From NCBI GenBank assembly GCA_003136555.1, contig PLEW01000036.1, forward strand, positions 6,640 through 70,639: a DNA stretch of 64,000 nucleotides, in the 5' to 3' direction. Source of the DNA: Planctomycetota bacterium (GTDB lineage: Bacteria > Planctomycetota > UBA11346). Shown in pieces: positions 32,307-52,095 of the stretch. The notes beneath the pieces are model-generated. The model had not been told where the DNA came from, did no database searches, and saw only the letters and a program-made list of their open reading frames with translations. Numbering within the stretch: the first letter of the stretch is position 1; every line of letters begins with the position of its first letter. Made by a program: the position numbers and the translations under genes.

Positions 32307-32738
32307 TTAGGGCGAGACCCCTTCACCTGGTCGGCCGGCAGCATCGCCGTCCGCCGCCATCGGCCCCGGGCGAGCAACCACCGGGCCGGTACGCGGCGCC
32401 GACGACTTGCGGAAGACCTCGGTCAGGGTCCCATGGATGGGCAGCAGCTTGTCCATCCGCGTCCTGGTCATCACCATGCGATTGCGCTCACTGACATGGA
32501 CCAGGTACAACGAGCCGTTGATCCGGCGGAAATCCCGGCACAGGCTGGCCAGGCTGCCGAAGGCGATGCTGGGGAGCTCGACCGCCTCTTCGCAATCGAT
32601 GATCACATGCTGGACCCCGCTATCGATGAACTGGCGGTTCACCTGATCGCGGAAGCCCAGCCAATCATTCTGGTCGAAGTGCCCGGGCAGCTCGATGACG
32701 CACTGCCCATTGACCATCCGGGTGTTCAGCATGGTCAT
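32307..32738 (-). CDS. STAS-domain protein (anti-sigma-factor antagonist-like)
   Basis: SpoIIAA-like layout (VIELPGHFD...HVIIDCEEAVELPSIAFGSLASLCRDF...LYLVHVSERNRMVMTRTRMDKLLPIH). The start overlaps the CheY stop (ATGA). Confidence 0.7.
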   Translation of the reverse strand: MTMLNTRMVNGQCVIELPGHFDQNDWLGFRDQVNRQFIDSGVQHVIIDCEEAVELPSIAFGSLASLCRDFRRINGSLYLVHVSERNRMVMTRTRMDKLLPIHGTLTEVFRKSSAPRTGPVVARPGPMAADGDAAGRPGEGVSP

Positions 32739-33130
32739 ACCGCCCCCGTTTCGGCTGCGCCGAGCGGAAGGCCTTGCGCCGCCTTTTCGACCGCACCGAT
32801 GATGCGATCGGCGTCGAACGGCTTGACGATGAAGTCGCAGATGCCGAGCTCGACGGCGCGGCGCATGGACTCGCGCTGATCGACCGCGGTGACCATGATC
32901 ACCTTCGCAGTGGGGTTGATCTGGCGGATGCCGGCGAGTGCGGCCAGGCCATCGGCATTCGGCATCACGATGTCGAGGGTGGTGATGTCCGGGCGCAGCT
33001 CGCGGTAGCGAGCGATGGCCTCGTTCCCATCCGCGGCCTCGCCGCAGATGCGGTAGCCGAGGGGCTCCAGCGCATCGCGGATGAGCTTGCGCATGAACAG
33101 CGCGTCGTCGACGATGAGAATGCTGATCAT
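32735..33130 (-). CDS. cheY: CheY-like single-domain response regulator
   Basis: MISILIVDDALFMRKLI...DIVMPNADG...VIMVTAVDQ...DFIVKPF. Receiver-domain Asp/Thr/Lys positions are all present. Confidence 0.9.
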   Translation of the reverse strand: MISILIVDDALFMRKLIRDALEPLGYRICGEAADGNEAIARYRELRPDITTLDIVMPNADGLAALAGIRQINPTAKVIMVTAVDQRESMRRAVELGICDFIVKPFDADRIIGAVEKAAQGLPLGAAETGAV

Positions 33131-33441
33131 CCCTGACTCCCCTGGCTTGACGCCTCGTCTGCGGACGGGGCGATGGCGAATTGCAGCGCCCCGAGCTGGC
33201 TGCGCACAGAGCGGTCCCCGGTGAAGGTCAGCGAGCCACCCTGCTTCTTCATCAGCTCGCTGGCACGCAGGATGAAGGCCAGGAAGGCCGGCGACGCCAT
33301 GACCGTGTCAGCGGCGAAGGCCATGGTGATGGCGGTCTTGCCGTTGCGGATCGCGGCGCGCAGATGCGACGCCAGGGCCTCCGCCCGGCTCTGGTCGATG
33401 ACGCCGCTGGCCTTGATGATGACTGCTGTGGAATCTGACAT
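33127..33441 (-). CDS. STAS-domain protein (anti-sigma-factor antagonist-like), second copy
   Basis: MSDSTAVIIKASGVIDQSRAEALASHLRAAIRNGKTAITMAFAADTVMASPAFLAFILRASELMKKQGGSLTFTGDRSVRSQ. Start at ATG 33439..33441 with RBS GGAGAG. ORF-track stop at 33127. Confidence 0.7.
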   Translation of the reverse strand: MSDSTAVIIKASGVIDQSRAEALASHLRAAIRNGKTAITMAFAADTVMASPAFLAFILRASELMKKQGGSLTFTGDRSVRSQLGALQFAIAPSADEASSQGSQG

Positions 33442-33482: not shown

Positions 33483-34016
33483 TCACAGCTCGATGCGATT
33501 ATGGCCGAAGTCCTCGACCACGAGGGTGAGATCCTCAGGGGTGAATTCGACCCTCCGCCCCAGCCGTCCGCCGACATGGTGGGCGATGACCGGGATGCGC
33601 GCCGCTGCAAGCGCGTCGGTGACCGAGGCGATGTTGGATGCGCCGATGTCGCGAGTGTAGTCCAGCGCATGGTCGAACATGCGCGCCCCCCCGGCGAATT
33701 TGCAACGCAGGCGGCTGCGCGCTGCGCCATGGGCGGTCAGCGACTCCAGCAGGCAGTCCACCGCATGGTCCGCATACTTCCCCGGCAGCATGCCGCGTGG
33801 CCGGCCCTCGGCATGCGGCAGGAGCACGTGCGCCATGCCCGCCAGGCGGATCTCGGGGTCGTAGATCACCAGCCCGATGCAGCTGCCGAGGACGGACTGC
33901 AGGCGATTGGGAGAACGCGTGAGATGGACCTGGCCGATCAGCACCTTGATGTCCTTGATCTGGCCCTTGCGCACAGCTTCGGTGCTAATCATGGCCGGCT
34001 CCGCGAGTGATGGCAT
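33483..34016 (-). CDS. cheD: chemoreceptor glutamine deamidase CheD
   Basis: CheD core GQVHLTRSPNRLQSVLGSCIGLVIYDP...GMAHVLLP with the catalytic Cys-His arrangement. An alternative start at 33992 sits 4 nt after the cheC stop. Confidence 0.85.
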   Translation of the reverse strand: MPSLAEPAMISTEAVRKGQIKDIKVLIGQVHLTRSPNRLQSVLGSCIGLVIYDPEIRLAGMAHVLLPHAEGRPRGMLPGKYADHAVDCLLESLTAHGAARSRLRCKFAGGARMFDHALDYTRDIGASNIASVTDALAAARIPVIAHHVGGRLGRRVEFTPEDLTLVVEDFGHNRIEL

Positions 34017-34590
34017 GCAGCACTTCCGGCGACGGTAGGAACACCAGGTGGATGGTCGGCCCGGAGCCGATGCAGGCGATGCGCGCCGTCACCACCACCG
34101 CATCGTCGGCGCAGGCGGCGGATTCGATCAGCAGCGCATCCCAGGCCGCGGTGCCGACATCGACCAGGACCACCGGGGCTAAGGGCACGGCGACGATGTC
34201 CATGCGGCTGGCCATGCCATTCATCATCGAGGAGAAGAGGATGTTGGCGGTCTCCTGGAGCATCGAGCGCTCCATCTCGCCGATGCCTCCAGCCTGCTCC
34301 TCGCCGGGCAGTTTCCCGCCGAGGCAGACCACCAGCTGGGTGGCGTCAGCATAGGAGAGCTGCACCGCGGCATTGCCCGGCAGCCCGCCGTTCACCCGCG
34401 AGGCGATGGTGATGGTGGTCGCACCCGCATCCTCGCCTTCCTGGGGGATGAGATCGAGCCGGACTGAAGCGACCGAGCAGACCTCGATGCGGACCTCGCG
34501 GTGGAGCCAGCGGGACAGCATGGAGCCGGCATTGCCGGCCCCATGGCGCGCGCTGGCGGCGAGATCGTCGAGATGGATCTGGCTGATCAT
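33985..34590 (-). CDS. cheC: CheC-family CheY-P phosphatase
   Basis: CheC/CheX/FliY-type repeats (LQETANILFSSMMNGMASRM; ESAACADDAVVVTARIACIGSG). Start adjacent to the cheA stop. Confidence 0.75.
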   Translation of the reverse strand: MISQIHLDDLAASARHGAGNAGSMLSRWLHREVRIEVCSVASVRLDLIPQEGEDAGATTITIASRVNGGLPGNAAVQLSYADATQLVVCLGGKLPGEEQAGGIGEMERSMLQETANILFSSMMNGMASRMDIVAVPLAPVVLVDVGTAAWDALLIESAACADDAVVVTARIACIGSGPTIHLVFLPSPEVLHAITRGAGHD

Positions 34591-34591
34591 G

Positions 34592-37500
34592 TCAGGCTCC
34601 TGCGCTCAGCAGCGGACGCTTCGCGCACGCCAGGTCATGGATGCCATGGATGTCGAGGATCAGCGCGACCCCCCCATCCCCCAGCACGGTGGCGCCGCTC
34701 AATCCGCGCACCCGGTTGAACTGCGCCCCCAGGGGCTTGACCACGATCTCCTCGTCGCCGATCACCTGGTCGACGGCGATGGCGATGGTCTCGCTCCCGC
34801 CCTTGGTGATCACCGCCCGCAGCAGGCCGCCGGCGGCGGCCAGGGGCACGATGCCGACCACGCGCTGGAGGTCGACCAGGCTGATCACCTGGTCGCGCAG
34901 GAAGATGACCCTCCCCTTGCCGTCCACGCTGCGCACCTCACGGCCGTCGATCTCGACGATCTCGCGCACGCAGTCGAGGGGGAAGGCGAAGCGGGCATCG
35001 CCGATCTTCACCAGCAGGGAATCGATCATCGCCAGGGTCAGCGGCAGGGCGATGGTGAAGGTGGCGCCCTTGCCGGGCTCGGAGGCGATGGCGATGGTGC
35101 CCTTGAGCGAGAGCACCTTGCTGCGCACGATGTCCATGCCCACCCCGCGGCCTGAGATGTTGGTGATCGCGGCGGCGGTGGAGAAGCCGGGCAGGAAGAT
35201 GAACTGGTAGATCTCCTCGTTGGTCATGCGATTGGCCGCCTCGGCGGTCACCAGGCCACGCTCGATCGCCTTGCTCCTGATCCTCTCGACCGACAGGCCG
35301 CGCCCATCGTCACGAACCTGGATGCAGATGGTGCTGCCGCGATGGAAGGCCTCGAGGTGCACCATGCCCTGGGGGGCCTTGCCCGCCGCCACCCGTTCCG
35401 CGGGCGTCTCCATGCCGTGATCGATGCCGTTGCGGATGAGATGGGTGAGCGGATCGCCGATCTCATCGATGAGCTTCTTGTCGAGCTCGGTCGAGTCACC
35501 GGAGGTCACCAGCTTGGCGTCCCGACCACGCTCCTTGCACAAGTCGCGCACCAGCCGGTGGAAGCGCTGGAAGAGCGGGCCGATCGGCACCATGCGCGAT
35601 TGCATCACGCTGTGCTGCATGGCGCTGGTATGCCGGTGCAGTTCCAGGGTCGTGTCGCGGGTGCGCCGGATCTCGTCCTGCGCCCGGCGCAGGAGGGAGA
35701 TGCTGGAGAGCTGGCGCGCCGAGGCGGTGCCGCCGCCATCGCCGACTGCCAGCTGCTCGAGCGCCCGGGCATCCACGCCGTCGAGCAGCCGGACCAGCGT
35801 ATCGACCTGCTGGGTCAGCCGGGCCTTGGTGATGGCCAGCTCGCCGGCGGTATTCAGCAGGTGGTCGAGGCGCATGGTATCGACGCGCACCGTGTCGGCA
35901 GCGGCAACGCCATGCCCGGCTGCCACCTTGGCCTCCGGCTGGACGGAGGCATTTGGGCCGCCGGCGCTGCGCGCCGGGGCCTCGCCCGCGGCCAGGGGAT
36001 CGATTGACCAATCGCGCACCAGGTCGCAGGTGATCGCCTCGATGAGCTCGGCGAGCGGCGCGAGCGAGGAGATCACCGCGCACAGCGATAGGGAAGCGCC
36101 GGTGCCCTTCTCGAGATCGCCCCTGGTGGGGCGGGAATGGTGGATGGTCGCCACCTTGCCCAGGTTCTCGAGGATCATGCGGAAGCGCAGATCGGGCAGC
36201 TGCGTATGCGCTGCGAGCACCAACCGCACCTTCCACAGCGGCTGCCCCGTGCAGGCGGCGCGGGCGGCAGAGAGCTCTTGTTCGCTCGGCGACCACAACG
36301 GCAGGCTGGCCTGCTGCGCCGCCGCCTTGGCCAGCTGGCGGGCGCAGGCATCATCGAGGGCGGCGCAATCAGGGGACGACTCCTCGCCGCGCTCGACGCG
36401 ATCAATGCAGGTCTGCAGCGCATCCTTGGTGGCGAACAAGTCGCTCATCACCCCGGCATCGAGGCGCATGCGGCCATCACGGATCGCTGCCAGCAGGCTC
36501 TCGCCTTGGTGCGAGAGGCGGGCCATCTCGTCCAGGCCCATGCTCGCGCTGGCGCCCTTGAGCGAATGCAGATGGCGGAATACGGCGTCGACATGCAGCA
36601 TCTCCTCCGGACTGCCTTCGCAGGCCAGCAGCGACGCATCCAGCTCGGTGAGCGCTTCCCGCGAGGTGCCGATCCACAGGGGCAGGTGCCTGGCCATGTC
36701 CGGCTTGACCGCCAGGCGCTCATGGCGCCTGGATGCCTTAGCGGGATCGCGGCCGATGCGCATCGCCTCGGACGTGCTGCCTGGCCCCGACAGCAGCCAC
36801 GCCTCGCCCGGGGGCACCTCCAAGGCCGCCAGCAGCACGGCCGCATCCCCGGCGCAGAAGCCAAAGACGCCGATGCGCAGCTGGAAATCGCGCAGCGGCG
36901 CCCAGAGATCCTCCGGCCCGGAGACCAGCTGGATGATGCGTCGGATGCCCACGCCCTGGGAGATGGCGTCCATCGCCGCGGTGGCCCCACGGGAGAAATG
37001 CAGCAGGCTGTCGGCCTCGAAGAGCAGCGCGACCGCCTGCTTGCCCTCGCCCATCGCAACCATGGTCTCGCAGATGTCCTCCTCATCGAGCCGGCCATGC
37101 AGCCAGGACGGCGCCTGGCCGAGGTGCTCAGCGACCGGATCGTAGGCACGTGGGGGCAGGCTGGGAAGCTCCGCGGGCAGCGCCGGCTGCGGGAGCACGG
37201 CTGGCGCAGCGGTTGGCGGCCCCACGGGCGCGGCCGGTGCGCCAAGCACCCCTTCGAGGAGGCGGAGCGCCGGCTGGATGTCGACCTGGCTGGTGCAGCT
37301 GCCGGCGACATCCGCCATCAGCGAGCTGACCGTATCAAAGGAGCGGAACAGGGCATCGACCACCAGGGCGGTGAAGGTCACCTTGCCGTGCCGGATCAGA
37401 TCGAGCACGGATTCCATGAGGTGCGTGACCTGGGCGATATCGGTGAGCTTGAGGAAGCCGGCCGCACCCTTGAGGGAATGGGCGGCGCGGAACATCTCGG

Positions 37501-37633
37501 CGATGTCATCGGGACCGATGGCGCGCTGCTCGACCGCCAGCAGCCGGTCATTGAGCGTGGCGATATGCACACCCGCCTCGTCGAGGAAGCCGGTGACCGC
37601 ATCGGAATCGATGCCGAAATCATTGGCAGCCAT
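34592..37633 (-). CDS. cheA: chemotaxis histidine kinase CheA with two Hpt domains, dimerisation, HATPase and C-terminal CheW-like domains (no REC)
   Basis: Hpt boxes HSLKGAAGFLKL and HSLKGASASMGL. HATPase_c G-boxes (NGIDHGMETPAER..., SGRGVGMDIV). C-terminal CheW-like ...ILDIHGIHDL. Confidence 0.9.
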   Translation of the reverse strand: MAANDFGIDSDAVTGFLDEAGVHIATLNDRLLAVEQRAIGPDDIAEMFRAAHSLKGAAGFLKLTDIAQVTHLMESVLDLIRHGKVTFTALVVDALFRSFDTVSSLMADVAGSCTSQVDIQPALRLLEGVLGAPAAPVGPPTAAPAVLPQPALPAELPSLPPRAYDPVAEHLGQAPSWLHGRLDEEDICETMVAMGEGKQAVALLFEADSLLHFSRGATAAMDAISQGVGIRRIIQLVSGPEDLWAPLRDFQLRIGVFGFCAGDAAVLLAALEVPPGEAWLLSGPGSTSEAMRIGRDPAKASRRHERLAVKPDMARHLPLWIGTSREALTELDASLLACEGSPEEMLHVDAVFRHLHSLKGASASMGLDEMARLSHQGESLLAAIRDGRMRLDAGVMSDLFATKDALQTCIDRVERGEESSPDCAALDDACARQLAKAAAQQASLPLWSPSEQELSAARAACTGQPLWKVRLVLAAHTQLPDLRFRMILENLGKVATIHHSRPTRGDLEKGTGASLSLCAVISSLAPLAELIEAITCDLVRDWSIDPLAAGEAPARSAGGPNASVQPEAKVAAGHGVAAADTVRVDTMRLDHLLNTAGELAITKARLTQQVDTLVRLLDGVDARALEQLAVGDGGGTASARQLSSISLLRRAQDEIRRTRDTTLELHRHTSAMQHSVMQSRMVPIGPLFQRFHRLVRDLCKERGRDAKLVTSGDSTELDKKLIDEIGDPLTHLIRNGIDHGMETPAERVAAGKAPQGMVHLEAFHRGSTICIQVRDDGRGLSVERIRSKAIERGLVTAEAANRMTNEEIYQFIFLPGFSTAAAITNISGRGVGMDIVRSKVLSLKGTIAIASEPGKGATFTIALPLTLAMIDSLLVKIGDARFAFPLDCVREIVEIDGREVRSVDGKGRVIFLRDQVISLVDLQRVVGIVPLAAAGGLLRAVITKGGSETIAIAVDQVIGDEEIVVKPLGAQFNRVRGLSGATVLGDGGVALILDIHGIHDLACAKRPLLSAGA

Positions 37634-37635
37634 GA

Positions 37636-38499
37636 TCAGCGCTTCCTGTAGATGGTGGGACGCACGTAGGAGAATTCGCTGCTGCGATCGTTGAGGGTCT
37701 CTGCACCGCCCAGGATCAGCCAGCCACCCGATCTCAGCCGGGCGCTGACATGGCGCATCACCGTGGCCTTGCTCTCGCCGTCGAAGTAGATGAGCACGTT
37801 GCGCAGCAGGATCAGGTCGTAGGGCTTGCCCGAGGATGCCTGCTGGAGGTTGTGCTGGCGGAAGCTGACCAGGCGGCGCAGCTGCTCCTGCACCTGGTGC
37901 CCGCTGTTGTCGGGCAGCTTGGTGAAGTACTGCTTCAGGCAGCGCGGCGTCAGCTTCTGGAGCGCATAGGCGGAGTAGATGCCCCTGGCCGCGCGCTCGA
38001 GCACCTGGGTGTTGATGTCGGTGGCATCGATGTGCACGCCATGGGCGCTGCCAGAGAGGCCCGCGGTCAGGGCGATGGCCAGGGAGTAGGCCTCCTCACC
38101 GGTCGAGCTGGCGGCGCTCCAGGCGCGGAAATCGGCAGAGGCCGGCACCTGCTGCCGCCAGTGCGGCATGATGGTGCCGAGGAGGAAATCCCAGTGCTGC
38201 TTGTGGCGGAAGAAGAACGTCTCATTGGTGGTCAGGGCCTCGAGGCAGGCCTGGAACTCGTCCTGGTGGCCGGGTGCCGTGACATAGGCGTGGTAGGCGC
38301 TGAAGGAGGGCAGCTGGAGCGCCTCGACCCGCTTGCGCAACCGGCTCTGCACCAGGTTCTGCTTGGCATCCGCCAAGCGGATGCCGGTCTCGCGGTACAT
38401 CATCTCCTGGAACAGCTTCATGTCGCTATCGCTGAAGTGCAGCTCAGCGGGAGTCGTCAGAGACGAGGGGCTGATGCGGGTCGGCATGAGGGTGGTCAT
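37636..38499 (-). CDS. cheR: chemotaxis protein methyltransferase CheR
   Basis: CheR N-terminal and SAM-MTase domains (NETFFFRHKQHWDFL..., SAASSTGEEAYSLAIAL, LRNVLIYFD). Start at 38497..38499 inside ORF 37636..38628. Confidence 0.9.
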   Translation of the reverse strand: MTTLMPTRISPSSLTTPAELHFSDSDMKLFQEMMYRETGIRLADAKQNLVQSRLRKRVEALQLPSFSAYHAYVTAPGHQDEFQACLEALTTNETFFFRHKQHWDFLLGTIMPHWRQQVPASADFRAWSAASSTGEEAYSLAIALTAGLSGSAHGVHIDATDINTQVLERAARGIYSAYALQKLTPRCLKQYFTKLPDNSGHQVQEQLRRLVSFRQHNLQQASSGKPYDLILLRNVLIYFDGESKATVMRHVSARLRSGGWLILGGAETLNDRSSEFSYVRPTIYRKR

Positions 38500-38523: not shown

Positions 38524-38540
38524 TTGCACCCGATGTGCCA
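38524..38540 (-). promoter_or_regulatory. sigma-54 (-24/-12) promoter consensus TGGCAC-ATCGG-GTGCAA on the minus strand, about 25-40 bp upstream of cheR
   Basis: Reverse complement of 38524..38540 is TGGCACATCGGGTGCAA. The GG and GC dinucleotides are spaced exactly as in the TGGCACG-N4-TTGCW consensus. An NtrC-type activator gene lies in the same block. Confidence 0.5.
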
Positions 38541-38906: not shown

Positions 38907-40682
38907 TCACTCGTGGTAGAGCGCTTTGCCGGCCGTCTCGAGCTCGCCGTCCTCCTCCTGGGCCAGCGACTGGCGGGACAAGGTGGCACGCGCGGGCGCA
39001 TGCCCCGCCGCGCCGTTGCGCTGGCCATTGCGGGTCGCCGACACCACACCGTTCCCCTGCCGGGTCAGGCCGGCTCGCGGTTCGGGCTTGGCCGCCGGGC
39101 GGCGCGCCGCCGCCAGCGCCGGACGGCGCTCGCGCTCGCTATCCTCGGCCAGGTGGAAGCGCGCGACCAGCTCCTGCAGGCGCTGGGCCTGCGCCGAGAG
39201 CTCCTCGGCGCTGGCGGCCATCTCCTCGGCCGAGGCCGAATTCTCCTCGGTGATCGCCGAGATGCCTTCCGCGCCCTTGCTCAGCTCCTTGGCGGTCACC
39301 GCCTGCTGCTCGGTGCTGGCGTTGATGCTCGCCATCCCCTGGCTGGTGCTGGTGATGCCCTCGATGATGGCATGCAGGGACTTGCCCACCTCATGCGACA
39401 GGGTGGCGCCATCCGTCACCCGCTTGCCCGATTCGTCGATCAGCTGCGCGATCTCCTGGGCGGCGGTGCTGCTGCGCTCGGCCAGCTTGCGCACCTCGTC
39501 CGCCACCACCGCGAAGCCCAAACCGTGCTCCCCCGCGCTGGCCGCTTCGATGGCGGCATTCAGGGCCAGGAGGTTGGTCTGGTTGGCGATCTGGTTGATC
39601 ACCCCGATGATCTTGGCGATCTGCGACGAGCTGTCGTTGATCGCCTTCATGCCGTCTATCGAGCGCTTGACCGTGGTGCTGCCGGCCTCGGCGGTGGCGC
39701 TGGTGCCCTGGGCGACGCGGTTCGCCTCGCCGGCCTTGGCCGCGACAAGCTCGATGCTCTTGGAGAGCTCCTGCACCGCCGCGCTGATCTCCTCCACCGA
39801 GCTGGCCTGGGTCTGCGCGCCGCTGCTGATGTTCTGCGCTGAGGCCGAGAGCTCCTCGCCCGAGGCAGCAGTCTGGTCGGCCGCCGCGCGGATCTCCGCC
39901 ATCACCCCATGCAGGGTCTCGACGGTGGTGTTGAGGGCGGCGGCCATCTCGCCGATCTCATCCTTGCCAACGCTGGGGATGCGCACGGTCAAATCGCCCT
40001 CGGCGACCTCCTGCATGGCCGATGCCATGCTGCGGATCGGACGCGAGATGCCGCGGGCGATCAGCCATGCGGTCACCAGGCCGATGACCACCGCCGCCAG
40101 GGTGGCGGCGCTGAGCAGCCACAGCGCGCGGGAGGCCACCTGGTCGGCGACCAGGCCCGCCTTCGCCGCCCCATCGTTGTTGATCTCGATGATGCGGTTG
40201 AGCGCCTTGTCGGCGCGGTAATAGGTGTCGCGCATGGCGCCGCCCATCAGCAAGGCGTGCGCCTCGTCCTTCTTGCCGATCTCAAGGAACTGCTTGCCGA
40301 ACTCCTGGTAGGCCTTCCAGTCGATCACGAACTGCTTGTAGATGGTGTTCTCCTCCTCGGTCTGCGGCAGCGGCTCGTAGATCTTCTGCCCGGCGGAGAA
40401 GACCGCGAGGGCCTTGACCATCTCGCCCTCATACTTCTCCATCGTCGCGGCATCGCTGGCGGTCAGGTGGGCATACTGCTGGCGGCGGTAGCTGCCGGCG
40501 CCCAGGCGCATCTCCTCGATCGAGTAGACCGAGGGCAGCCAGCGGTCCTTGATCACCGTGGTCTGCTCGGTGACCCGGTGCAGCTGGGTGATGGCGAACG
40601 CAGCCACCCCGATCAGCAGGGAGAGGACCAGGCCGAAGCCGAGCAGGAGCTTGGTCTGGATGCGGAGATTGGCGAGATTCAT
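38907..40682 (-). CDS. methyl-accepting chemotaxis protein (4HB-type periplasmic sensor, HAMP, MCP signalling domain)
   Basis: Two TM segments flank a helical periplasmic domain. HAMP ([25 protein letters not shown]). Highly conserved signalling hairpin [38 protein letters not shown]. Confidence 0.9.
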
Positions 40683-40741: not shown

Positions 40742-41251
40742 TCAGACCGGCGCAGCGACGCTCTGGAGCTGGGCCTGCTCGCTGGTGGCGAGGACCTTCT
40801 CGATGTCGAGCAGCAGCTGCAGGTGGTCGTCGAGCCTGGCCACGCCGATGAGGTATTCACCAGCGATGCAGGCGATGGTGTCAGGCGGCGGCTGGATATT
40901 GGCCTTGGGGATCTTCATCACCCGCGAGACCGCATCGACGATCATCCCGACGATGCCGCCGTCCATGCGCGTGACCACGATGCGGGTGTGCTCATCAAGG
41001 CCGCAGCTGCCCATGCCGAAGCGCTTGCGCAGATCGACCACCGGGATGACGGTGCCGCGCAGGTTGATGATTCCCTCGATGTAGCCGGGCATCTGCGGCA
41101 CCTTGGTGATGCCTTCGACGAGGATGATCTCCTTGACCTTGATGATCTCGATGGCGTATTCCTCGGCTCCGAGGTTGAATGACACCACCTGCAGGTAGTC
41201 CTGCATCTTGAGGGTCATGCGCGATTGCTCGACGGTGGATACCTGGGTCAT
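40742..41251 (-). CDS. cheW: chemotaxis coupling protein CheW
   Basis: 169-aa CheW fold ([21 protein letters not shown]...[18 protein letters not shown]...MIVDAVSRV). Start at 41249..41251 inside ORF 40742..41839. Confidence 0.9.
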
Positions 41252-41286: not shown

Positions 41287-43302
41287 CTAGGGGATGAAGT
41301 TCTTGACCATCAGCACGACATTGCCGCGCTGATTGAATTCGACGCGCGTCATGCGCGCCTGGACCATGGCGAGGCCGAAGCCGCCGCAGCGCTTGCCTGC
41401 CCGCTCGCGCAGCGCGGAGACGTGCAGCGGATCGAAGGAATCGAACAGGCGGTGGGTGTCGAAGCCGCTGCCTTCGTCGGCGATCTTGACCATCACCCGG
41501 TCGGGCATGATCAGGGTCGAGACGCGCACCGTGAGTTCGGGCGCGAAGCGGTTGCCCCACTCGATGCCGTTCATCGCCATCTCGCGGATCGACCACACCA
41601 GGTCGTCGAGCACCCCGGACGGCAGCGGCTGGCGCGCCAGGGCCTGGAGGTAGCGGGTCAGCAGTTCGACCGCCGCAGGCGAGGAGGAGATGACGAAGTC
41701 GAACCATTCGTTGCCGAGATTGTCGAACGCCACCAGGTCGCGGTCGGGATCGAACTGCAGGGCGTAGCGGAACGCGCGCTCGAACTCGCGCACATCGACC
41801 GGCTTGGTGAGGATGCCGGCGGGATTGAGATCGAAGCACTGTCGCGCCGCGCTGTCGATCGCATTGCCGGTCACCACCAGCACCGGGAGGTGGGGATGCA
41901 GGCGGCGGATCGAGCGGAAGAGGTCATGCCCGAGGGCATCAGGCAGGCCGAGATCGAGGATGACCAGGTCCGGCTGCTGCTCTGCCAGCGCCAACCGCGC
42001 GGCGGCGGCGGTCGAGCACGAGGTGGCGGTGATGCCAATTTTCGTCAGCACATGGCCGATCAGGGTGCAGATGATCGGGTCATCATCGATATGCAGGACG
42101 CGCTTGCCCGCGACGATGACGTGACGCTCGGGCGGCAGCGCCGTGCGCGGACGCAGCGCCAAGAGCGAAATGTCGTCGGCGAAGGCATGCAGCGGCACGG
42201 CGCTGGTGGCCATGTCGATGGCGCCGGTGAGCACACCGGTCAGATCCGTGCTCGCCTGGCCCAGCTGGGTCAGGCACCGCTGGCCGTGGGTGCAGGCGAT
42301 GGGATAGAGATCCTCGCTCAGGCCATCGGTGTAGGCGAGCAGCACCTCGCCATCAGCGAGCGTGGTCGAGCGCATCTCGCGTTCACCATCGGCGGCGACG
42401 CCCAGGGCGCTGCCTTCCGCCTCGAGCTTGCGGAAGCCGGTGGTGGCAGAGCACACCAACGGGGCGGGATGCCCAGCGGAGGCATAGACCAGCTCGCGGC
42501 TGGCTTCGTCATAGCGGGCGCAGAAGGCAGTGGCGTAGTACTCGCCCGGGAACAGCTCGCGCATCACGCTGTCGGCGCGCGCAAGGATCTCCGCCACCGG
42601 CACTCCCGCCTCGAGCGAGCTGAACCAGGTCCGCAGGGCGATCCCGCCGAAGGCGGCAGGGGTGCCATGCCCGCTGACGTCGGCGACGAACAGCAGCACC
42701 TGGCCCTGGCCATCGGCGCGCACGTCCATGTAGTCGCCGCCCAGGCCCGCCTGCGGCAGATGGCGGAGCGCCACATCGGTGTGGCGCAGCCAGGAGAAAT
42801 CGGAGGGGAAGATGCGCTGGTGCAGCCTGCGGGCGAACATGCGCTCGCGCGTCATCGCCGCGCGTAGGTTCTTCTCGGTATCGAGGCTCATCTCCATGCG
42901 ACGGATGGTGATGCGATCGGAGCGGCTGGCGGAGATCTGGTCTACCAGCAACCGCAGCTCATCGAGCTTGATCGGCTTGCGCATCAGGCCGACTGCGCCC
43001 TCCTCGACCGCCTGGCGCAGATCGCAGATCGCGCTGTGCGCGGTCATCAGCAGCACGTCGACGCCCGGGAAGAGGTTGCGCACTTTATGCAGCAGCTGCG
43101 TCCCACTGCCCCCCGGCATGCAGATGTCGGTGATCACCAGGTCGATGGCCCCGTCCGTGCGGCTGATCGCTGCGGTGGCAGCATCCACCGAGCTGGTGCC
43201 GATGGCCTGGTGACCGCAGCGGGCCAGGAAGGGCTCGATGGTATCGAGGATCAGGGGTTCATCATCGACAACTAGGATGCGCATGATGCGGTGCTCCGAC
43301 AT
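41287..43302 (-). CDS. four-domain partner-switching protein: REC - PP2C (SpoIIE/RsbU-like phosphatase) - REC - RsbW-like HATPase (anti-sigma-factor-type Ser kinase)
   Basis: REC1 MRILVVDDEPLIL...DICMPGGSG. PP2C motifs GGDYMDV, LFVADVSGHGTPAAFG, LLAYTDGLSE. REC2 VLHIDDDPIICTL...VILDLGLPD...VLVVTG. C-terminal GHKL-type EMAMNGIEWGN...ADEGSGFD. Start placed at 43300..43302. Confidence 0.85.
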   Translation of the reverse strand: MSEHRIMRILVVDDEPLILDTIEPFLARCGHQAIGTSSVDAATAAISRTDGAIDLVITDICMPGGSGTQLLHKVRNLFPGVDVLLMTAHSAICDLRQAVEEGAVGLMRKPIKLDELRLLVDQISASRSDRITIRRMEMSLDTEKNLRAAMTRERMFARRLHQRIFPSDFSWLRHTDVALRHLPQAGLGGDYMDVRADGQGQVLLFVADVSGHGTPAAFGGIALRTWFSSLEAGVPVAEILARADSVMRELFPGEYYATAFCARYDEASRELVYASAGHPAPLVCSATTGFRKLEAEGSALGVAADGEREMRSTTLADGEVLLAYTDGLSEDLYPIACTHGQRCLTQLGQASTDLTGVLTGAIDMATSAVPLHAFADDISLLALRPRTALPPERHVIVAGKRVLHIDDDPIICTLIGHVLTKIGITATSCSTAAAARLALAEQQPDLVILDLGLPDALGHDLFRSIRRLHPHLPVLVVTGNAIDSAARQCFDLNPAGILTKPVDVREFERAFRYALQFDPDRDLVAFDNLGNEWFDFVISSSPAAVELLTRYLQALARQPLPSGVLDDLVWSIREMAMNGIEWGNRFAPELTVRVSTLIMPDRVMVKIADEGSGFDTHRLFDSFDPLHVSALRERAGKRCGGFGLAMVQARMTRVEFNQRGNVVLMVKNFIP

Positions 43303-43614
43303 CCCTGCATTGCGTCGGCTGTGCCAGAACCGGGTGGAATCCCAGCGGTTGTGCTGCCAAGCCTTTGCGTCATCCAGGTGGCATCGCGCGTGGTGGCGAA
43401 CACCAACCCCTGGGGTCAGCGGCCCAGGGGTTGGGGTAGCGGCGGGGTGCAGCGACAGCTGCGGGAATGAGGGCGAAACGCGCGCACCCACAGACGCCTG
43501 ATGCGGCCTGCAGGGCGCGGAAAGGGGGGCGTAGACGAGGGTTGAGGACGCGCTGATCGGTACCAGAGCGCAGCAGGGCCAGGGGGCGCGCACCCGCGCT
43601 GCCCCGCGCAGGCA

Positions 43615-45240
43615 TCACGCTGGCGACGGCGCTTCCGGCAGCAGCAGGCGGAACGATGAGCCGGCGCCGGGGTGCGAGTCGAGCAGCAGATGACCGTGAT
43701 GCGCCACCATGCATCCGACCACGGTGGCCAGCCCCAGGCCGCTCCCCTGCCCGGGCGCTTTGGTGGTGAAGAAGGGCTCGAAGATGCGGTCCTGGATGGC
43801 CTCGGGGATGCCGATGCCGTCATCCGACACGCTGATGGCGGCGAAAATGCCCTGGATCTCCTGGGCGCAGATGCGGCAGCGATGGCCTGTGACCGTCTCG
43901 CGCGACACCCCGATGCGCACCCGCCCACCGGCCCGCAGCGCATCGCGGGCATTGATGCAGAGGTTGAGCAGGGCGTTGAAGAGCTGCTCGCGGCTGCCGC
44001 TCACGCACGGACCCGGCTGCTCGAGCGCGAGCTCCAGGGTCTTGCCATCGCCGATAGTGCAGCGCAGCAGGGACTCCAGGTCGGCGACCATCGGCGAGAG
44101 GCAGATGGCCGTCATCGCCGGCTGCCCATGGCGGGCGAAGGTGAGTAGATCGCGGACCAGCGCCGCCGCCGTGGTCGATGAGCGCTCGATGCAGGAGAGC
44201 CGATGGCTGGTCGCGGCATCGCCGCGGCAGACCTGCTGCACCAGTGAGAGATTGGCGAGGATCACCTGCAGGTGGTTGTTGAAATCATGCGCCAACCCGC
44301 CGGCGAGGCGCCCCAGCGCTTCCAGCTTCTCGCTCTGGTCGAGACGTTGGCGCTGGGCGAATGCATCGGTGATGTCCCACACCAGGCCGATCACGCGCTG
44401 GCTCGCGTCGGGAGCCCCGCTCTGGCGGCCGCGGATGCGGATGCGCCGGCGCACGCCGTGATGGGTCCACCAGGCATCGATCTCGATGGTCTGGCTGCCT
44501 GAGAATCCCTGCGACCAGGCGGCGATGATGGCGGGGCGCTCCTCGGCCGGGAATCCCGCCATCATCTCCTGCCATCCCATGACTGCCGAGTCGTGTTCAA
44601 GACCCAGGATCGCCGCGGCCTCATGACCGAAGGAGATGGCTGAGCCGGGGCCATCGATCTGCCAGGTGCCCATGCCGGCGGCCGCCAGCGCCAGATCGAG
44701 GCGTGCCTGGCGATCCAACGCCGCCCCCTCCGCCAGGTGGCGCAAGGCGCTCTCATCGACCGCCTGGCGCGCCAGGCGGTCGTTCGCGGTGCGCAGCGCG
44801 GCGGTCAGCTGGGCGACCGACAGGTGGACGGCGACCCGTGCCAGCAGCTCACCGACGATGACCGGCTTGGCGATGACATCGCTGGCGCCTACTGCAAACG
44901 ATCTGATGCGCTCCTCGGCATCCTGGCTGGCGCTGAGGAACAGCACCGGGATGCCGGCAGTGTGGGGGTCGTCGCGCAGGCGGCGGCAGGTCTCGATGCC
45001 ATCCATCTCCGGCATGCGGATATCGAGCAGGATGAGGTCCGGCCGGCGCGCGGTGACCGAACGCAGGGCATAGGCGCCTCCTGGTGCCTGCCGTACCGTC
45101 AGTCCGTGTGCGCCCAGGATCGCGCCGAGGACCTGGAGGTTCTCCGGCACGTCATCGACGATCAGCACTTCGCCGCTCAGCATCGGGGTACTGGCGGACG
45201 GTTCGTTGCTGGCAGCTTGAGGCATGGACGTCCAAGGCAT
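43615..45240 (-). CDS. hybrid histidine kinase REC-PAS-HisKA-HATPase (receiver at the N-terminus)
   Basis: [14 protein letters not shown]...[11 protein letters not shown]...VLFLSAS. PAS. H-box [13 protein letters not shown]-boxes [11 protein letters not shown] and [11 protein letters not shown]. Exact start ambiguous; Met candidates at 45240, 45225 and 45183. Confidence 0.85.
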
Positions 45241-45381
45241 GGACCAGCCAGTGCGAACGCCATGCCAGGCGAGGGCGCGCACCGCTTGGCCGTCCGCCAG
45301 GCACTTACGCCCATGCCCTGCAGTGAGCCACCCCAAACATCGGGGTTGCCCACCACCTCTTGGGGCGCCACCGGCCGCCGC

Positions 45382-46772
<1,391 letters not shown>

Positions 46773-46776
<4 letters not shown>

Positions 46777-47555
46777 GTGCTCTCCTGCTCGGCGATGCGA
46801 TGGTGCAGACGCACGGTCACGGTGGTGCCCGTGCCCGGCTGGCTGGCGATATCGAGCTGGCCGCTGCATTGGGTCAGCACCCCGCGGGCGGTGGCCAACC
46901 CGAGCCCGACGCCGCGATCGGGCCCCTTGGTGGTGAAGAAGGGCTCCCCGGCTTTGGCCAGGGTGGGGGCATCCATGCCGATGCCGTTATCGCTCACCCG
47001 CACGCTGACCGGATCGCTCGGCAGCACCCCCCCGTCGACGACGATGGAGATGCGTCCGCGTCCGGTCCCGGCCCGGGCGATGCAGGCATCCCCGGCGTTC
47101 GAGAGCAGGATCTGCACCACCTCCTGGATGCCGAAGGGATTGGCGCGCACACGTGCGCGCCCACCTTGGGCCGAGATCTCCAGGTCGATGCCGGCCGCCT
47201 GCAGGCGGGTGCCCATCAGGCGCACCGCCGCCCTGACCGCGGTCATCACCTCGACCGTGACCATGTCCAGCCGCGCACGCTCGTCGGCGAAGCCGCGCAC
47301 GCTCTGGATCAGGTCGTCGATGCGATCGGCCTCGGCGATGATGCGCCGCATTTTGGCCTTGATCTCCGCCTGCGAGATGTCCCAGCCCTCCTCCAGGCCG
47401 ATGAGGATGCCTTCGGCGAAGCCGCGGATGCCGCCCAGGGGCTGGTTGATCTCGTGGGCCATGCCGCCGGCCATGTCGGCCAGGCCCTTGAGCCGGTGCT
47501 GCTGCATGCGGCTGATCATCGCCGCGTCATCGTTATATCCGGGAACGGTGGTCAT
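46773..47555 (-). CDS. soluble histidine kinase (HisKA-HATPase only); probable cognate kinase of the NtrC-like regulator
   Basis: H-box MAHEINQPLGGI. N-box LLSNAGDA. G-boxes DNGIGMD and GVGLGL. ATGA overlaps at both ends. Confidence 0.85.
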
Positions 47556-49570
47556 TGGGGTCGGCCCTCGAGGAGTGTACCCATCAGCTGGGAGAGCTGC
47601 CGGATGCGCACCGGCTTCTCGATGAAGGCCGCCAGCCCATCCTGGCGCAGCGCGTCGATGTTCTCGCCGGCGGTATGCCCCGACATGAGCACGATGAGCG
47701 CGCCGGGGTCCGCCCGCCTGATCGCCCTGAAGACGCCCGCGCCGCTCTGCTTGGGCATGATCAGATCGATCAGGCCGATGGCGAAGCGCGGCTGGGTCTG
47801 CTGCCAGGCGGCGATGGCGGCATCGGGGTCGGCGACGGTGGTGACCTCCCAGCCGAGATGGCGCAGACCATCGGCGAGCACCTCGCGCACGGTGGCCTGG
47901 TCATCCAGCAGCAGCACGCGGCCGGTACGGTGCTGCATGGCGGTAGTGGCAACGCTCACCGGCGTGCTCGCCGCGGGCGCCGCGGAGCTGCCCAGATACA
48001 GGGAGACGGTGGTGCCGCGGCCGGCCGCCGAATCGAGCGACAGATAGCCGCCATGGGCGACCACGCAGCCCAGCACGGCCGAGAGCCCAAGGCCCGTCCC
48101 CTTGCCCTCCGGCTTGGTGGTGAAGAACGGCTCGAAGATGCGGCCCTGGATCGACTCGGGGATGCCGATGCCGGTGTCGGCGACCGTCAGGACGGCGAAG
48201 TCGCCGCTGAAGGCCCGGCGCGAGACCTGGCAGAAGGCCTGCTCCACCGCCCGCCGTTCGAGGCTCAGCGACAGGCGCCCACCGTCGGGCATCGCATCGC
48301 GGGCATTGATGCAGAGGTTCAGGATCGCGTTCTCGAGCTGCCCGGCATTGCCCGAGACGACGATCGGCCCCGCGGGGATGGCGGCGGTGAGGGTGATCGC
48401 CGTCCCGAGCGAGCGCGAGGCCATCTGCACGGTCTGGCGCAGCAGCTGGCAGAGGTCGATGGTTGAGCGCTCGAGATCGCGACGCTTGGCGAATGTCAGC
48501 AGGTCGCGGATGAGGATGGTGGAGGCTTCGGCGGCCTTGCTGATGTTGTCCAGGTGGGCGGCGGCCTGCGGCGAGCCGGCGCCATCCAGGTGCAGGATGT
48601 CGACCTCGGCGGTGATGATGGCGAGCTGGTTGTTGAAGTCGTGGGCCACCCCACCGGCCAGCAGTCCCAGGGCCTCCATGCGTTCGCTCTGGATCAGGCG
48701 ATCGCGCAGCTGGTGCTCCTCGGTGATGTCCCAGATCACCCCGGCCATCTGCACCGCACCCCCCCCCGCGCGCGGGGGCAGCGGCCGGCCACGCAGACGG
48801 ATGCGGGTGCGCGCAGGGCCGTCCCCGCCTGCCGCAGCGGCGACTGGCGGAGTCCACCAGCCCTCGAGGTCGAAGCTCCCGCGGTTGCGCAGCGCACGTT
48901 CGAAGCGCAGGGCGATGCCCTCCTGCTCGGCCTGCGGGAAGGTCTGGATGATATCAGACCAGGCGAGCTGATGCTCCGCGGCCAGACCGAGGATGGCCCG
49001 GGCCCGCTCGTCGCAGCGGAAGGCGGCGCTGACCGGGTCGATCTCCCAGGCGCCCAGGGTAGCCGCTGCGAGCACCAGATCGAGGCGGGCGAGACGCTCG
49101 GCGGCGACCGTCTCGGCATCCCCGCGCCGGTTGGTCTCGGCCAGCACCTGGTCGGAGAGGCGGGCATTGGCCTGATCGAGCGCCTGGCGGGTGCGCCCGA
49201 GGGCGAGGTGGGTGGTGACCCGAGCGAGGACCTCCTCGGCCTGGAAGGGCTTGGAGATGAAGTCCTCGCCGCCGACGCGGAAGCTCTCGATGCGGTCGGC
49301 GGCGGCGTCGCTGGCGCTGAGGAACAGTACCGGGATGGTGGCGCTGGCGGGATCGAGCCTGAGCCGGCGGCAGGTCTCGAAGCCATCCAGCTCAGGCATC
49401 TGCACATCCAGGAGGATGAGGTCCGGGCGACGAGCCTGGACCGAGCGCAGCGCCATCGTCCCGCTGGAGGCGACCCGCACCTTCAGCCCATGGTCACGCA
49501 GCAGGTCGCTGAGCACGCGCAGGTTCTCCGGCGTGTCGTCGACTAGCAGGACTTCGCCGTCGCTGCTCAT
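47552..49570 (-). CDS. hybrid histidine kinase REC-PAS-HisKA-HATPase-REC
   Basis: N-terminal [14 protein letters not shown]...[12 protein letters not shown]-box [13 protein letters not shown]-boxes DTGIGIPE and [10 protein letters not shown]-terminal [13 protein letters not shown]...GLIDLIMP. Start at 49568..49570 with RBS GGAGGGGAG. Confidence 0.9.
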
Positions 49571-52095
49571 GACTCCCCTCCGGACGCGGCGACCAGGGCA
49601 TGCAGCCGGTCGAAGGCGCAGGCCTGCGCCAGCTCGCTGATCCCATCCGCCAGTCTGCGGTTCGACCAGGTGGCGGTCTGGGTGGAGATGGCGTGCAGGT
49701 CGCCGATGATGATCGCTTCGCGGATGCGGCCGAGATCCTCGTGCGGCAGGGCTGCCAGAGCGTTGCGCAGCTCGCCATCCGCGCCCGCTGCCGGGAGGCG
49801 CGGCGACTCCGAACCGCGTTCGCGCCACACGAAGTGGATGCCCAGCAGCTGTTCGATGGTGATGAACAGGTGGTCTTCACGGTAGGGCTTGTGCACGATC
49901 TCATCGCAGCCGCCCGCACGGATGCGCTGGCTGTCGGACTCGAAGGCGGCCGCGGTCAGGGCGATGATCGCCGGAGCCGGGCCGGGCAGCTGGCGGATCG
50001 CCGCGGCAGCGCTCAGGCCATCCAGGACCGGCATGTCGATGTCCATCAGGATGAGGTCGATGTGCTGCTCGCGGCAGGCAGCGATGGCGGCCTGGCCCTG
50101 GTCGACCGCCACCACCTGGCAGCCGGCCTGCGCGAGGATCTCCTGCAGCAGCGCCCGGCTCGCGGCATGGTCCTCGGCGACCAGCACCCGGGGCGCCGCC
50201 TGTCCGGGAACCAGGCCGATGACATCGCGGCGTACCGCCGCCCGGATCGCCGAATCGACGATGATGGCGGGAATCGCCAGAGTGAAGGCCGATCCGCGCC
50301 CTGGAGTGCTCTCCACTGTCAAGCGACCGCCCATGACCTTGGCAAAGCCGCGGCTGAGCGCCAGGCCCAGGCCCGAGCCATCGCCGCCGAGGCGGGCTGA
50401 ACGGGTCTGGACGAAGGGATGGAACAGCGTGGCGAGGTCCTCGGCGCTGATGCCGCAGCCGCTATCGCTGACGGTGACGCTCAGCTGAGTGTCCTGCCAC
50501 GAGGCCATCAGGGCGACACAACCCCTGGCGGTGAACTTGATGGCGTTGGACAGCAGGTTGAAGAGCACCTGGCGGAGCTTGCGCTGATCGGCGCGGATAC
50601 AGCGGGGCACATCCGCGGCCATGGTGACGCTCAGCTCCAGCCCCTTCTCGTGCGCCCGCTGGAGGAACAGGCTCTTGATGTTGTCGAGCAGGCCGTGCAG
50701 ATCGAAATCCTCGGGCAGGGCGGTGGTCTGCCCGGCCTCGATGCGCGACATCTCGAGCACATCGTTGATCAGCGACAGCAGGTGCTCGCCCGAGCGGTTG
50801 ATCACCTCCACCGCCTGGCGCTGCTGCGGGGCCAGGCGGTGATCGCGTACGAGCATCTGGGCATAGCCGAGGACCGCATTGAGCGGGGTGCGGATCTCAT
50901 GCGACATGCTGGCGAGGAAGTCACTCTTGGCGCGGTTGGCCTGTTCGGCCGATTCCTTGGCGCTGAGATAGGACTTCTCAAGCTGCTGGGCCTGGTCGAG
51001 GGCGGCGACGGCATCCTGCCGCGCCCGCTCCGCCTCGGTGATGGCGCGCTGCAGTTCGCCGGTGCGTATCGCAACCAGGTCCTCGAGCCGGTGGCGGTAG
51101 CCGGTCAGCTCGGCATCCTTGGCGGTGCGCTCGGTGATGTCCTCGTTGATCCCGACCATGCGCAGCGCTCGCCCCTGGGCATCGCGGATGCCGATGAAGC
51201 AGGAGCGGATGAGCCGGATGCTGCCATCTTGCCGGCAGATGCGGAAGGTGTGGTCCTGGTCCGGGCCATGCTCGACCGCTGCGGCGAGCAGCGCGGTGGT
51301 GGCGGCGCGGTCGAGCGGATGCACCAGCCCCACCCAGGCATCGAATCCGCGTGCGCTGGCGGCCGGTGCGCTGCCGTAGATGCGGCCCATGTTCTCGTCC
51401 CACACCAGCCGGCTGGTGCGCACCTCCCAATCCCACACCCCCAAACCCGAGGTGCGGGTGGCCAGGCTGAGGCGCTCGCGGCCGGCAAGCAGATCCGCTT
51501 GCGCCGCCCGCTCGCGCATCTGCAGCCCGAGCAGGTTGCCGAAGAACAGCACCGCGAAGGGATAGGTGAGCGGTACCGGCAGGATGCGCGTCAGGAAGCC
51601 ATCCAGGACCATCTGGAGGGGCAGCAGGAAGGCGGTGACCAGCCCCCAGGCGAACAGCATCAGCCCGAGGACGAGGTGATGCTTGAGGCGCAGCAGCTCC
51701 GGGCGGCCACCGACCCAGAAGAACACCACCGCACCGGCCGCCCCGCCGCCCATGATGGCGCAGATGCCGGAGAGCGCACCCAGGCCGCCGAGATGGAGGC
51801 GGTAGGCCGCCACCACATTCACCGCCACCAGCGCTGCGGGGATGCCGTAGAAGGCCCCGGCCAGGGCGACCAGCACCACCCGGGCATCGACGATCACGCC
51901 ATTGGCGAGGTGGATCGGCACCTGCATGCCGATCAGGGCGATGCCGGCGAACAGGCCGCCCATCACCAGGCTGAGCAGCCCCGGGTGAGCCAGGGGCAGG
52001 CGTAAGCGGATCTGGTTCTCCAGTCCGAGGAACACCAGCACCAGGGCCATGTTCTCGCCCAGGCCTACCAGCAGATCGATCGGTGAGATCATCAC
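49567..52095 (-). CDS. membrane-bound hybrid sensor histidine kinase (multi-TM sensor - PAS - HisKA - HATPase - REC - C-terminal helical domain)
   Basis: About 6 N-terminal TM helices. PAS (WDWEVRTSRLVWDENMGRIYG). H-box MSHEIRTPLNAV. G-boxes DSGCGISAE and GSGLGLALS. REC VLVAEDHAASR...ILMDIDMPVLDG. First gene of the block; GTG/ATG start at 52095/52092. Confidence 0.9.
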   Translation of the reverse strand: MMISPIDLLVGLGENMALVLVFLGLENQIRLRLPLAHPGLLSLVMGGLFAGIALIGMQVPIHLANGVIVDARVVLVALAGAFYGIPAALVAVNVVAAYRLHLGGLGALSGICAIMGGGAAGAVVFFWVGGRPELLRLKHHLVLGLMLFAWGLVTAFLLPLQMVLDGFLTRILPVPLTYPFAVLFFGNLLGLQMRERAAQADLLAGRERLSLATRTSGLGVWDWEVRTSRLVWDENMGRIYGSAPAASARGFDAWVGLVHPLDRAATTALLAAAVEHGPDQDHTFRICRQDGSIRLIRSCFIGIRDAQGRALRMVGINEDITERTAKDAELTGYRHRLEDLVAIRTGELQRAITEAERARQDAVAALDQAQQLEKSYLSAKESAEQANRAKSDFLASMSHEIRTPLNAVLGYAQMLVRDHRLAPQQRQAVEVINRSGEHLLSLINDVLEMSRIEAGQTTALPEDFDLHGLLDNIKSLFLQRAHEKGLELSVTMAADVPRCIRADQRKLRQVLFNLLSNAIKFTARGCVALMASWQDTQLSVTVSDSGCGISAEDLATLFHPFVQTRSARLGGDGSGLGLALSRGFAKVMGGRLTVESTPGRGSAFTLAIPAIIVDSAIRAAVRRDVIGLVPGQAAPRVLVAEDHAASRALLQEILAQAGCQVVAVDQGQAAIAACREQHIDLILMDIDMPVLDGLSAAAAIRQLPGPAPAIIALTAAAFESDSQRIRAGGCDEIVHKPYREDHLFITIEQLLGIHFVWRERGSESPRLPAAGADGELRNALAALPHEDLGRIREAIIIGDLHAISTQTATWSNRRLADGISELAQACAFDRLHALVAASGGES

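Follow-up and report, generated by a model that had tools for sequence, protein, structure and literature searches.

Partner switches and chemosensory arrays are two main signalling devices of bacteria, and in several described proteins the opposing phosphatase and kinase of a partner switch share one polypeptide. In Rv1364c of Mycobacterium tuberculosis, for example, RsbU-like and RsbW-like domains are part of a single chain (PDB 3ke6). In Pseudomonas aeruginosa, the REC-PP2C-kinase protein HsbR phosphorylates the STAS protein HsbA when it is itself unphosphorylated, and phosphorylation of its receiver domain (REC) switches on the PP2C phosphatase, leading to HsbA dephosphorylation (PMC6482189). 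CrsR of Shewanella oneidensis behaves like HsbR, the kinase domains of both proteins bind RpoS, and the two have homologues that are said to occur widely in Proteobacteria (PMC6482189). Both crsR and crsA reside within a ten-gene che1 operon together with cheA, cheY, cheW, cheR, cheD, cheB, and two genes for methyl-accepting chemotaxis proteins (MCPs) (PMC9855816); the link between Che1 and CrsR has so far been inferred genetically. SypE of Vibrio fischeri has the order kinase-REC-PP2C, controls SypA Ser56, and is predicted to dimerise via its REC (PMC10120452). Here, we analysed a 64,000-nucleotide stretch of Planctomycetota contig PLEW01000036.1 (the window) and describe a gene on its minus strand, most likely spanning positions 41287-43284, whose product has the order REC1-PP2C-REC2-RsbW-like kinase. 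Judged by published descriptions and domain architecture, the protein is a two-receiver variant of the HsbR/CrsR class and very probably works like that class.

The features found in the target that define this class are an N-terminal REC, a central PP2C, a C-terminal RsbW-like kinase, and a nearby STAS gene. A single REC with PP2C joined straight to the kinase is the one class feature that the target lacks, and this three-domain layout does occur in its REC2-less relatives, the proteins P0019 and P0097 and the copy at locus L008. That the opposing enzymes can be fused, that a receiver can control them, and that a che operon can encode them is already established; only the second REC between PP2C and kinase is uncommon.

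All segments of the protein are encoded on the minus strand. REC1 (42928-43284, residues 7-125) is followed by a helical linker (42733-42927, residues 126-190) and by a PP2C/SpoIIE-type serine phosphatase domain (42139-42732, residues 191-388) with the motifs GGDxxD, DVSGHG, AGHP, TDG and DD. REC2 (41758-42111, residues 398-515, 118 residues) lies within the linker between PP2C and kinase. A conserved pre-kinase segment, FDPDRDLVAFDNLGNEWFDFVISSS (41668-41757, residues 516-545), which the REC2-less relatives have too, then leads into an RsbW/SpoIIAB-like GHKL serine kinase/anti-sigma-type domain (41290-41667, residues 546-671), whose N, G1 and G2 boxes are intact. Pfam matches Response_reg twice (total E = 6.9e-43, the second stretch at residues 402-510), SpoIIE/PP2C at residues 199-384 (E = 1.2e-34), and HATPase_c_2 at residues 539-667 (E = 1.6e-14). 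Matches in NCBIfam are partial and concern regulators with a receiver, RssB among them; none of its curated families spans the whole chain.

Active-site residues were checked in a 26-sequence family alignment. In REC1, the target has the acidic pair D13/D14, the phospho-acceptor D59, T87 and K109, among which D13, D14 and D59 are invariant across the family. PP2C has D190, D193, D208, G211, H212, D326, D376 and D377 (D190, D208, D326 and D376/D377 being conserved), REC2 has D406-D408, D450, T478 and K500, and the kinase domain has E574 and N578 in the N box, D609, G611 and G613 in G1, and G640, G641 and G643 in G2, all of them conserved. In addition, the kinase domain aligns with Bacillus subtilis RsbW (PDB 6m36) through the E..N, DxGxG and GGxGL boxes. 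PP2C aligns with Rv1364c (3ke6), its best PDB sequence match, and with P. aeruginosa RssB (3eq2/3es2), through GGDxxD, DVxGHG, AGHP, TDG and DDxxLL. The domains of the target are apparently catalytically competent. Two relatives look partly inactivated: in P0013 (locus L005), E-N replaces the final Asp pair of PP2C, and P0015 has lost the kinase G1/G2 glycines and has no HATPase_c_2 Pfam match.

A preliminary description of this gene had proposed a REC-PP2C-REC-HATPase_c chain with each enzyme preceded by its own REC, and placed it at 41287-43302. Pfam, the motif alignments with RsbW, Rv1364c and RssB, and the residue check bear out the four domains, including the GHKL nature of the C-terminus and the catalytic Asp residues of PP2C, and the statement about the receivers is a fair description of the layout. 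The open reading frame (ORF) is likewise real: the minus strand from 41287 to 43614 has coding-type GC content by codon position (0.68/0.48/0.86 at first, second and third positions), typical of genes in the window (GC ~68%), and the plus-strand ORFs that overlap the target have shadow-frame composition. The start probably needs revision. ATG 43302, which would give 671 residues, coincides with the predicted transcription start of a conserved sigma-54-type element at 43311-43326, and all homologues, together with the database entry P0001 (665 residues, 100% identical), start at MRILVV, which corresponds to ATG 43284, 18 nucleotides downstream; we therefore moved the start to ATG 43284. This codon is preceded by GGAG and opens a 665-residue protein that begins MRILVVDDEP. 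Residue numbers throughout are those of the 671-residue version.

An AlphaFold2 model of the full chain has a mean predicted local distance difference test score (pLDDT) of 78.6 and a predicted TM-score (pTM) of 0.43, the single domains being confident. It contains two receiver folds, a GHKL-like C-terminus, and one long helix (residues 113-162) that bridges REC1 and PP2C. In a Foldseek search, the best PDB matches were P. aeruginosa RssB, a REC-PP2C protein, and the RsbU+RsbW fragment of Rv1364c, which spans PP2C and kinase.

The four-domain form is rare, and nearly all of its members come from Planctomycetota that have not been cultured or from a small number of other lineages. When 5.8 billion proteins were searched by a word index, about 19 clusters matched the target over its full length at 36-100% identity, with named sources that include a Planctomycetota metagenome-assembled genome (MAG), 'bacterium M21', and a Desulfobacterales MAG. 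Of 1.84 billion 50%-identity representatives searched exhaustively with a profile, 3,447 matched at E ≤ 1e-30, and we classified the architectures of the best 150 of these with domain hidden Markov models built from the family, checking a sample with Pfam. Among these best 150 of 3,447, the four-domain form accounts for at least 8-10 clusters at 50% identity. Full REC-PP2C-REC-kinase chains are P0012, P0016, P0017, P0018, P0095, P0096, and the distant singleton P0106; the same 150 also hold a few fragments, two forms with a degenerate middle domain (P0134 and P0136), and 14 three-domain REC-PP2C-kinase proteins. The nearest outgroups in this representative search are unnamed REC-PP2C-kinase proteins. 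A search started from P0106 yielded no additional four-domain relatives, only the Hpt-REC-PP2C-kinase variant P0249. In this 770-residue protein (Hpt-REC-PP2C-HATPase_c_2), the Hpt step of a phosphorelay is fused to a partner-switch regulator, which may be compared with HptB feeding HsbR.

A scan of 185,579 species, with a single representative genome apiece, confirmed 15 loci that encode a relative of any kind. About 8 of the 15 (L001-L007 and L009) belong to the target family and come from Planctomycetota or Brocadiaceae MAGs, seven of them encoding four domains; a ninth locus, L008, from a deltaproteobacterial MAG, encodes a copy without REC2. The source annotations of the relatives are all generic ('RsbU', 'SpoIIE family', 'CheY-like'), and in literature searches we found no paper describing a two-receiver version.

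The active site of REC2 has the canonical receiver residue at each of its five positions in the target and in 14 of the 18 other REC2-bearing relatives, the pattern expected under selection for phosphorylation in the clade, and D450 is retained in all REC2-bearing relatives but the two most divergent, P0134 and P0136. Mean pairwise identity within the close clade is 83% for the pre-kinase segment and 81% for the kinase domain, the most conserved domain of the protein; the REC1-PP2C linker helix, at 78%, is also among the most conserved segments, and the C-terminal half of REC2 reaches 72%. Receivers typically signal to the next domain through the alpha4-beta5-alpha5 face, and the conservation of this half, which contains that face, fits a coupling of REC2 to the kinase. 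A receiver joined to an RsbW-like kinase without a phosphatase also occurs on its own: stand-alone REC-HATPase_c_2 proteins of ~280 residues (P0180, P0159, P0186, P0215, P0226 and P0235; loci L019 and L020) exist, so the REC-gated RsbW-like kinase is a recurring module. No described function was found for such stand-alone proteins, and the contigs of P0180 and P0159 do not extend far enough to include informative neighbours. P0173 has the order REC-kinase-REC-kinase.

Candidate substrates are encoded in the same operon, which contains two cognate single-domain STAS genes with a conserved Ser. STAS1 (33127-33441, minus strand) has Ser50 at the canonical phospho-site column, and STAS2 (32307-32738, minus strand) has Ser57 within an LPSIAFG motif. 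STAS2 aligns with TM1442 and SpoIIAA, and Ser57 matches their phosphorylated Ser. In an alignment of both STAS paralogue families, the phospho-site column is Ser in 8 of 9 sequences, STAS1 Ser50 included.

From 52.1 kb down to 32.3 kb, all genes of the window lie on the minus strand. CheW (40742-41251) starts 35 nucleotides past the target stop codon and is followed by a methyl-accepting chemoreceptor (4HB_MCP-HAMP-MCPsignal, 38907-40682), the CheR methyltransferase (37636-38499, with its start revised to ATG 38499), CheA (34592-37633), a CheC/CheX-like protein with a weak Pfam match (33985-34590), and CheD (33483-34016). The cluster has a CheC-like protein and CheD, is without CheB, and ends STAS-CheY-STAS, with a CheY-like single-domain receiver (32735-33130) between the two STAS genes. 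In CheA, two Hpt domains (HSLKG, His52 and His356) precede the P2, dimerisation, HATPase and CheW domains. From cheR through the second STAS gene, neighbours overlap or abut, and the CheA, CheW, MCP and CheR core shares one cluster, partly translationally coupled, with a putative non-flagellar output protein. Downstream of the che cluster lie an HDOD-domain protein (30335-31225, minus strand) and a 164-residue ORF with no Pfam match (31238-31732, minus strand); both are probably outside the cluster, since neither follows it in L008.

Upstream of the target, on the same strand, are a 5TM-LYT-PAS hybrid kinase (49567-52095), a REC-REC hybrid kinase (47552-49828), a HisKA-HATPase kinase (46773-47555), an NtrC-family sigma-54 activator with the order REC-AAA+-HTH_8 (45382-46869), and, immediately upstream, a REC-HisKA-HATPase kinase (43615-45336) that only some orthologous loci have. 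Several maximal ORFs in 45382-52095 (minus strand) overlap by ~100-260 nucleotides, so the starts there probably need revision.

We compared genomic contexts by tblastn with the window neighbours and by gene calls on the contigs of relatives. The order target-CheW-MCP(s)-CheR-CheA-CheC-like-CheD-STAS-REC-STAS is found in most loci long enough to judge, at least 8 in number, and spans relatives of 36-73% identity from several lineages. The module occurs in the Planctomycetota loci, in the deltaproteobacterial REC2-less L008, and with the distant P0017, P0018 and P0096; in the distant singleton P0106, a REC gene and then a STAS gene lie directly downstream. One or more histidine kinases and, in most loci, an NtrC-type activator precede the target. 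The activator adjoins the target gene in the Planctomycetota loci L001 and L003-L005, in deltaproteobacterial L008, and in the distant L016 and L021, and the kinase/NtrC block stands beside the target in nearly every related locus, mostly on the same strand and divergently in L016 and L021. The dual Hpt of CheA shows no clean correlation with the presence of REC2: CheA has two HSLKG motifs in the Planctomycetota clusters and one in L008 (REC2-less) and L017 (REC2 degenerate), and the cluster of the REC2-intact P0017 (L016) also has one.

A sigma-54-type -24/-12 element, TGGCACagccgACGCA (TGGCAC-N5-ACGCA; 43311-43326, minus strand), lies upstream of the target and recurs 40-50 nucleotides before the orthologous ATG in the Planctomycetota loci L001, L002, L003 and L005, with the shared form TGGCAC-N5-nnGCA and unconserved flanks. 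Related GG-N10-GC elements stand 40-50 nucleotides before the ATG in L017 and L021, and weaker ones occur in L008 and L016. A second element, TGGCACatcggGTGCA (exact TGGCAC-N5-GTGCA; 38525-38540, minus strand), falls within the maximal cheR ORF. Translation of cheR probably begins at ATG 38499 (MTTLMP...), ~26 nucleotides downstream of the 3′ end of this element, and similar elements precede cheR in L002, L005 and L007. Within the window, the motif is not above chance (with two mismatches allowed, 25 occurrences where 31 are expected; for exact matches, 2 where 1.5 are expected), and it is conservation across loci that supports these candidate elements. Because the elements before the target and cheR are conserved and an NtrC-type activator is a neighbour, we predict sigma-54 control of the operon, whose transcription is probably driven by the adjacent NtrC-type regulator.

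We favour, with moderate confidence, a reading of the target as a bifunctional STAS switch of the HsbR/CrsR type that serves as the output of a chemotaxis-like, non-motility operon and in which REC2 is the kinase's own input. The enzymatic activities, the identity of the phosphodonor, the direction of control by REC2, and the downstream target in the following scheme are what we infer from sequence. The MCP-CheW-CheA array, the conserved neighbouring histidine kinases, or both would phosphorylate the receiver domains, CheA with its two Hpt domains and these kinases being the candidate phosphodonors; the stand-alone CheY may compete as a phosphate sink. Phosphorylation of REC1 at D59 would activate PP2C via the long conserved helical linker, so that the phosphorylated STAS protein is dephosphorylated, as in HsbR, CrsR and other REC-PP2C proteins. 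The C-terminal RsbW-like domain would use ATP to phosphorylate Ser50 of STAS1, Ser57 of STAS2, or both, and may in addition sequester a partner, for example a sigma factor. REC2, with D450, lies just before the kinase and would act as its separate phospho-input. The two opposing activities could in that way be adjusted reciprocally or by different phosphodonors, two in number, unlike in the single-REC HsbR and CrsR, and the phosphorylation state of the STAS proteins would be the output. Whether REC2 goes so far as to gate the kinase independently of the REC1-gated PP2C is a tentative proposal. Two phosphorelay signals, for example from the two Hpt domains of CheA or from CheA and the sigma-54-linked neighbouring kinases, would in that case converge on two STAS effectors, making a two-input push-pull switch.

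Several observations weigh against the reading of a STAS switch with REC2 as kinase input. REC2 is degenerate in P0016 and P0018, which keep its Asp and have lost the acidic pair and/or T/K, and is fully degenerate in P0134 and P0136. It is absent from P0019, P0097 and L008, members of the same che cluster or family, in which the surrounding che/STAS cluster is unchanged and the end of PP2C runs directly into the conserved pre-kinase segment. The core switch can therefore do without REC2, whose role may be purely structural. Its N-terminal half, with 41% mean identity, is the least conserved and fastest evolving stretch of the protein; the N-terminal half of a receiver usually holds the phosphodonor-docking helix alpha1, and this variability makes a fixed phosphodonor for REC2 less likely. 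In addition, inter-domain packing in the model is unreliable (pTM 0.43), and the packing of REC2 on the kinase cannot be read off it. The match of STAS1 to STAS_2 scores below the Pfam cut-off and a PDB sequence search with STAS1 gave no match, the sigma-54 motif is not enriched within the window, and the che cluster contains no sigma or anti-sigma factor gene. The losses, the degenerate copies, and the divergent N-terminal half, as well as the dimerisation via REC predicted for SypE (PMC10120452), would suit a switch with a single input, in which REC2 is an unphosphorylated pseudo-receiver serving as spacer, dimerisation element or scaffold and REC1 alone toggles the enzymes, as in HsbR/CrsR. 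Also on this side, a neighbour-joining tree of the shared domains (without support values) places the REC2-less P0019 and P0097 among the members that bear REC2, suggesting repeated, secondary loss of REC2 in these two proteins rather than its insertion in the others. We nevertheless judge such a switch unlikely, given that the five canonical REC2 residues are kept in the target and in most REC2-bearing relatives and that P0016 and P0018 keep the phospho-acceptor Asp despite drift elsewhere.

A different output is conceivable for the kinase end. Its alignment with the anti-sigma kinase RsbW and its standing as the most conserved domain of the target would fit a C-terminal domain that mainly sequesters a sigma factor, as domain D3 does with RpoS in CrsR and HsbR; the STAS proteins would be releasing antagonists and STAS phosphorylation the reset. 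This idea is compatible with our reading and differs from it in the output, and we regard it as possible but doubtful, because the conserved cluster neither contains nor adjoins a sigma factor gene at any locus examined and because HsbA and SypA, the STAS proteins of their systems, are themselves the effectors downstream. That REC1-PP2C and REC2-kinase act as two modules on different STAS paralogues, giving two parallel outputs, could be argued from the two paralogue families conserved in the operon, each with its Ser, and from the existence of stand-alone REC-PP2C and REC-HATPase_c_2 proteins. It is improbable, since the REC2-less L008 cluster has a STAS2-type match only, the distant P0106 locus has a single STAS gene, and the characterised fusions all act on one STAS protein. 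A virtually negligible probability attaches to an artefact, be it a sequencing or assembly error that joined adjacent REC-PP2C and REC-kinase genes or a gene in decay. The target frame is uninterrupted, with coding-type GC at third codon positions throughout; 56 contigs from several sources encode an identical protein, and ~17 diverged full-length homologues have the same colinear four-domain chain, which together argue that the chain is not an assembly artefact, and we rejected this explanation.

Read as a two-receiver STAS switch, the target family is a compact and strongly conserved example of a che-coupled partner switch in a poorly studied phylum. Since each enzyme has its own receiver, point mutations at D59 and D450 could separate kinase from phosphatase activity, and separable receivers would make testable how receiver phosphorylation picks kinase over phosphatase output, a question that also concerns HsbR, CrsR and SypE. 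The known repertoire of enzyme types is unchanged; the value of the family lies in a natural two-input variant and in a better annotation than 'RsbU' or 'SpoIIE family phosphatase'. The proposals of the preliminary description about function fared unevenly. A phosphatase and a kinase on one chain are not a novelty, HsbR, CrsR, SypE and Rv1364c being precedents. The architecture was called uncommon, which holds for the second REC (at least 8-10 clusters in the best 150 of 3,447 matches) and not for the three-domain class, which is characterised. A bifunctional switch for the neighbouring STAS proteins gains from the operon's STAS genes with a conserved Ser, the independent switching of the kinase by REC2 staying conjectural, and the idea that CheA or the kinases drive the receivers gains from conserved neighbours that could feed them, phosphotransfer itself being presumptive.

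In Bacillus, the RsbU/RsbW/RsbV and SpoIIE/SpoIIAB/SpoIIAA systems share with the target locus a PP2C phosphatase, a GHKL serine kinase, and a STAS substrate with a conserved Ser, but there the components are separate proteins, the input is not two-component, and the kinase is a proven anti-sigma factor. Rv1364c has its RsbU-like PP2C and RsbW-like kinase on one chain, as does the target, but has no REC domains; it carries an N-terminal PAS sensor and a C-terminal fused STAS domain instead. SypE also combines an RsbW-like serine kinase, a REC, and a PP2C on one polypeptide and sets the Ser phosphorylation of a STAS effector, SypA. It differs in order (kinase-REC-PP2C with one central REC, against REC-PP2C-REC-kinase) and in being encoded in a polysaccharide locus rather than a che operon.

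For the REC1-PP2C and kinase portions of the target, HsbR with HsbA offers the best model of mechanism, although HsbR has only one REC, receives its input from hybrid kinases through an Hpt protein, is not encoded in a che cluster, and has known outputs in FlgM, HsbD and RpoS. CrsR with CrsA matches in genomic setting as well: the single chain of CrsR runs from an N-terminal REC through a central PP2C to a GHKL kinase/anti-sigma domain at the C-terminus, and crsR lies in an operon with cheA, cheW, cheR, cheD, MCP genes and a single-domain STAS gene, the same logic and kind of neighbours as in the window. However, CrsR has one REC and the target two, and the Shewanella locus has CheB and one STAS protein, whereas the window cluster has a CheC-like protein, no CheB, and two STAS proteins. 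The target, moreover, heads its operon behind a sigma-54-type element.

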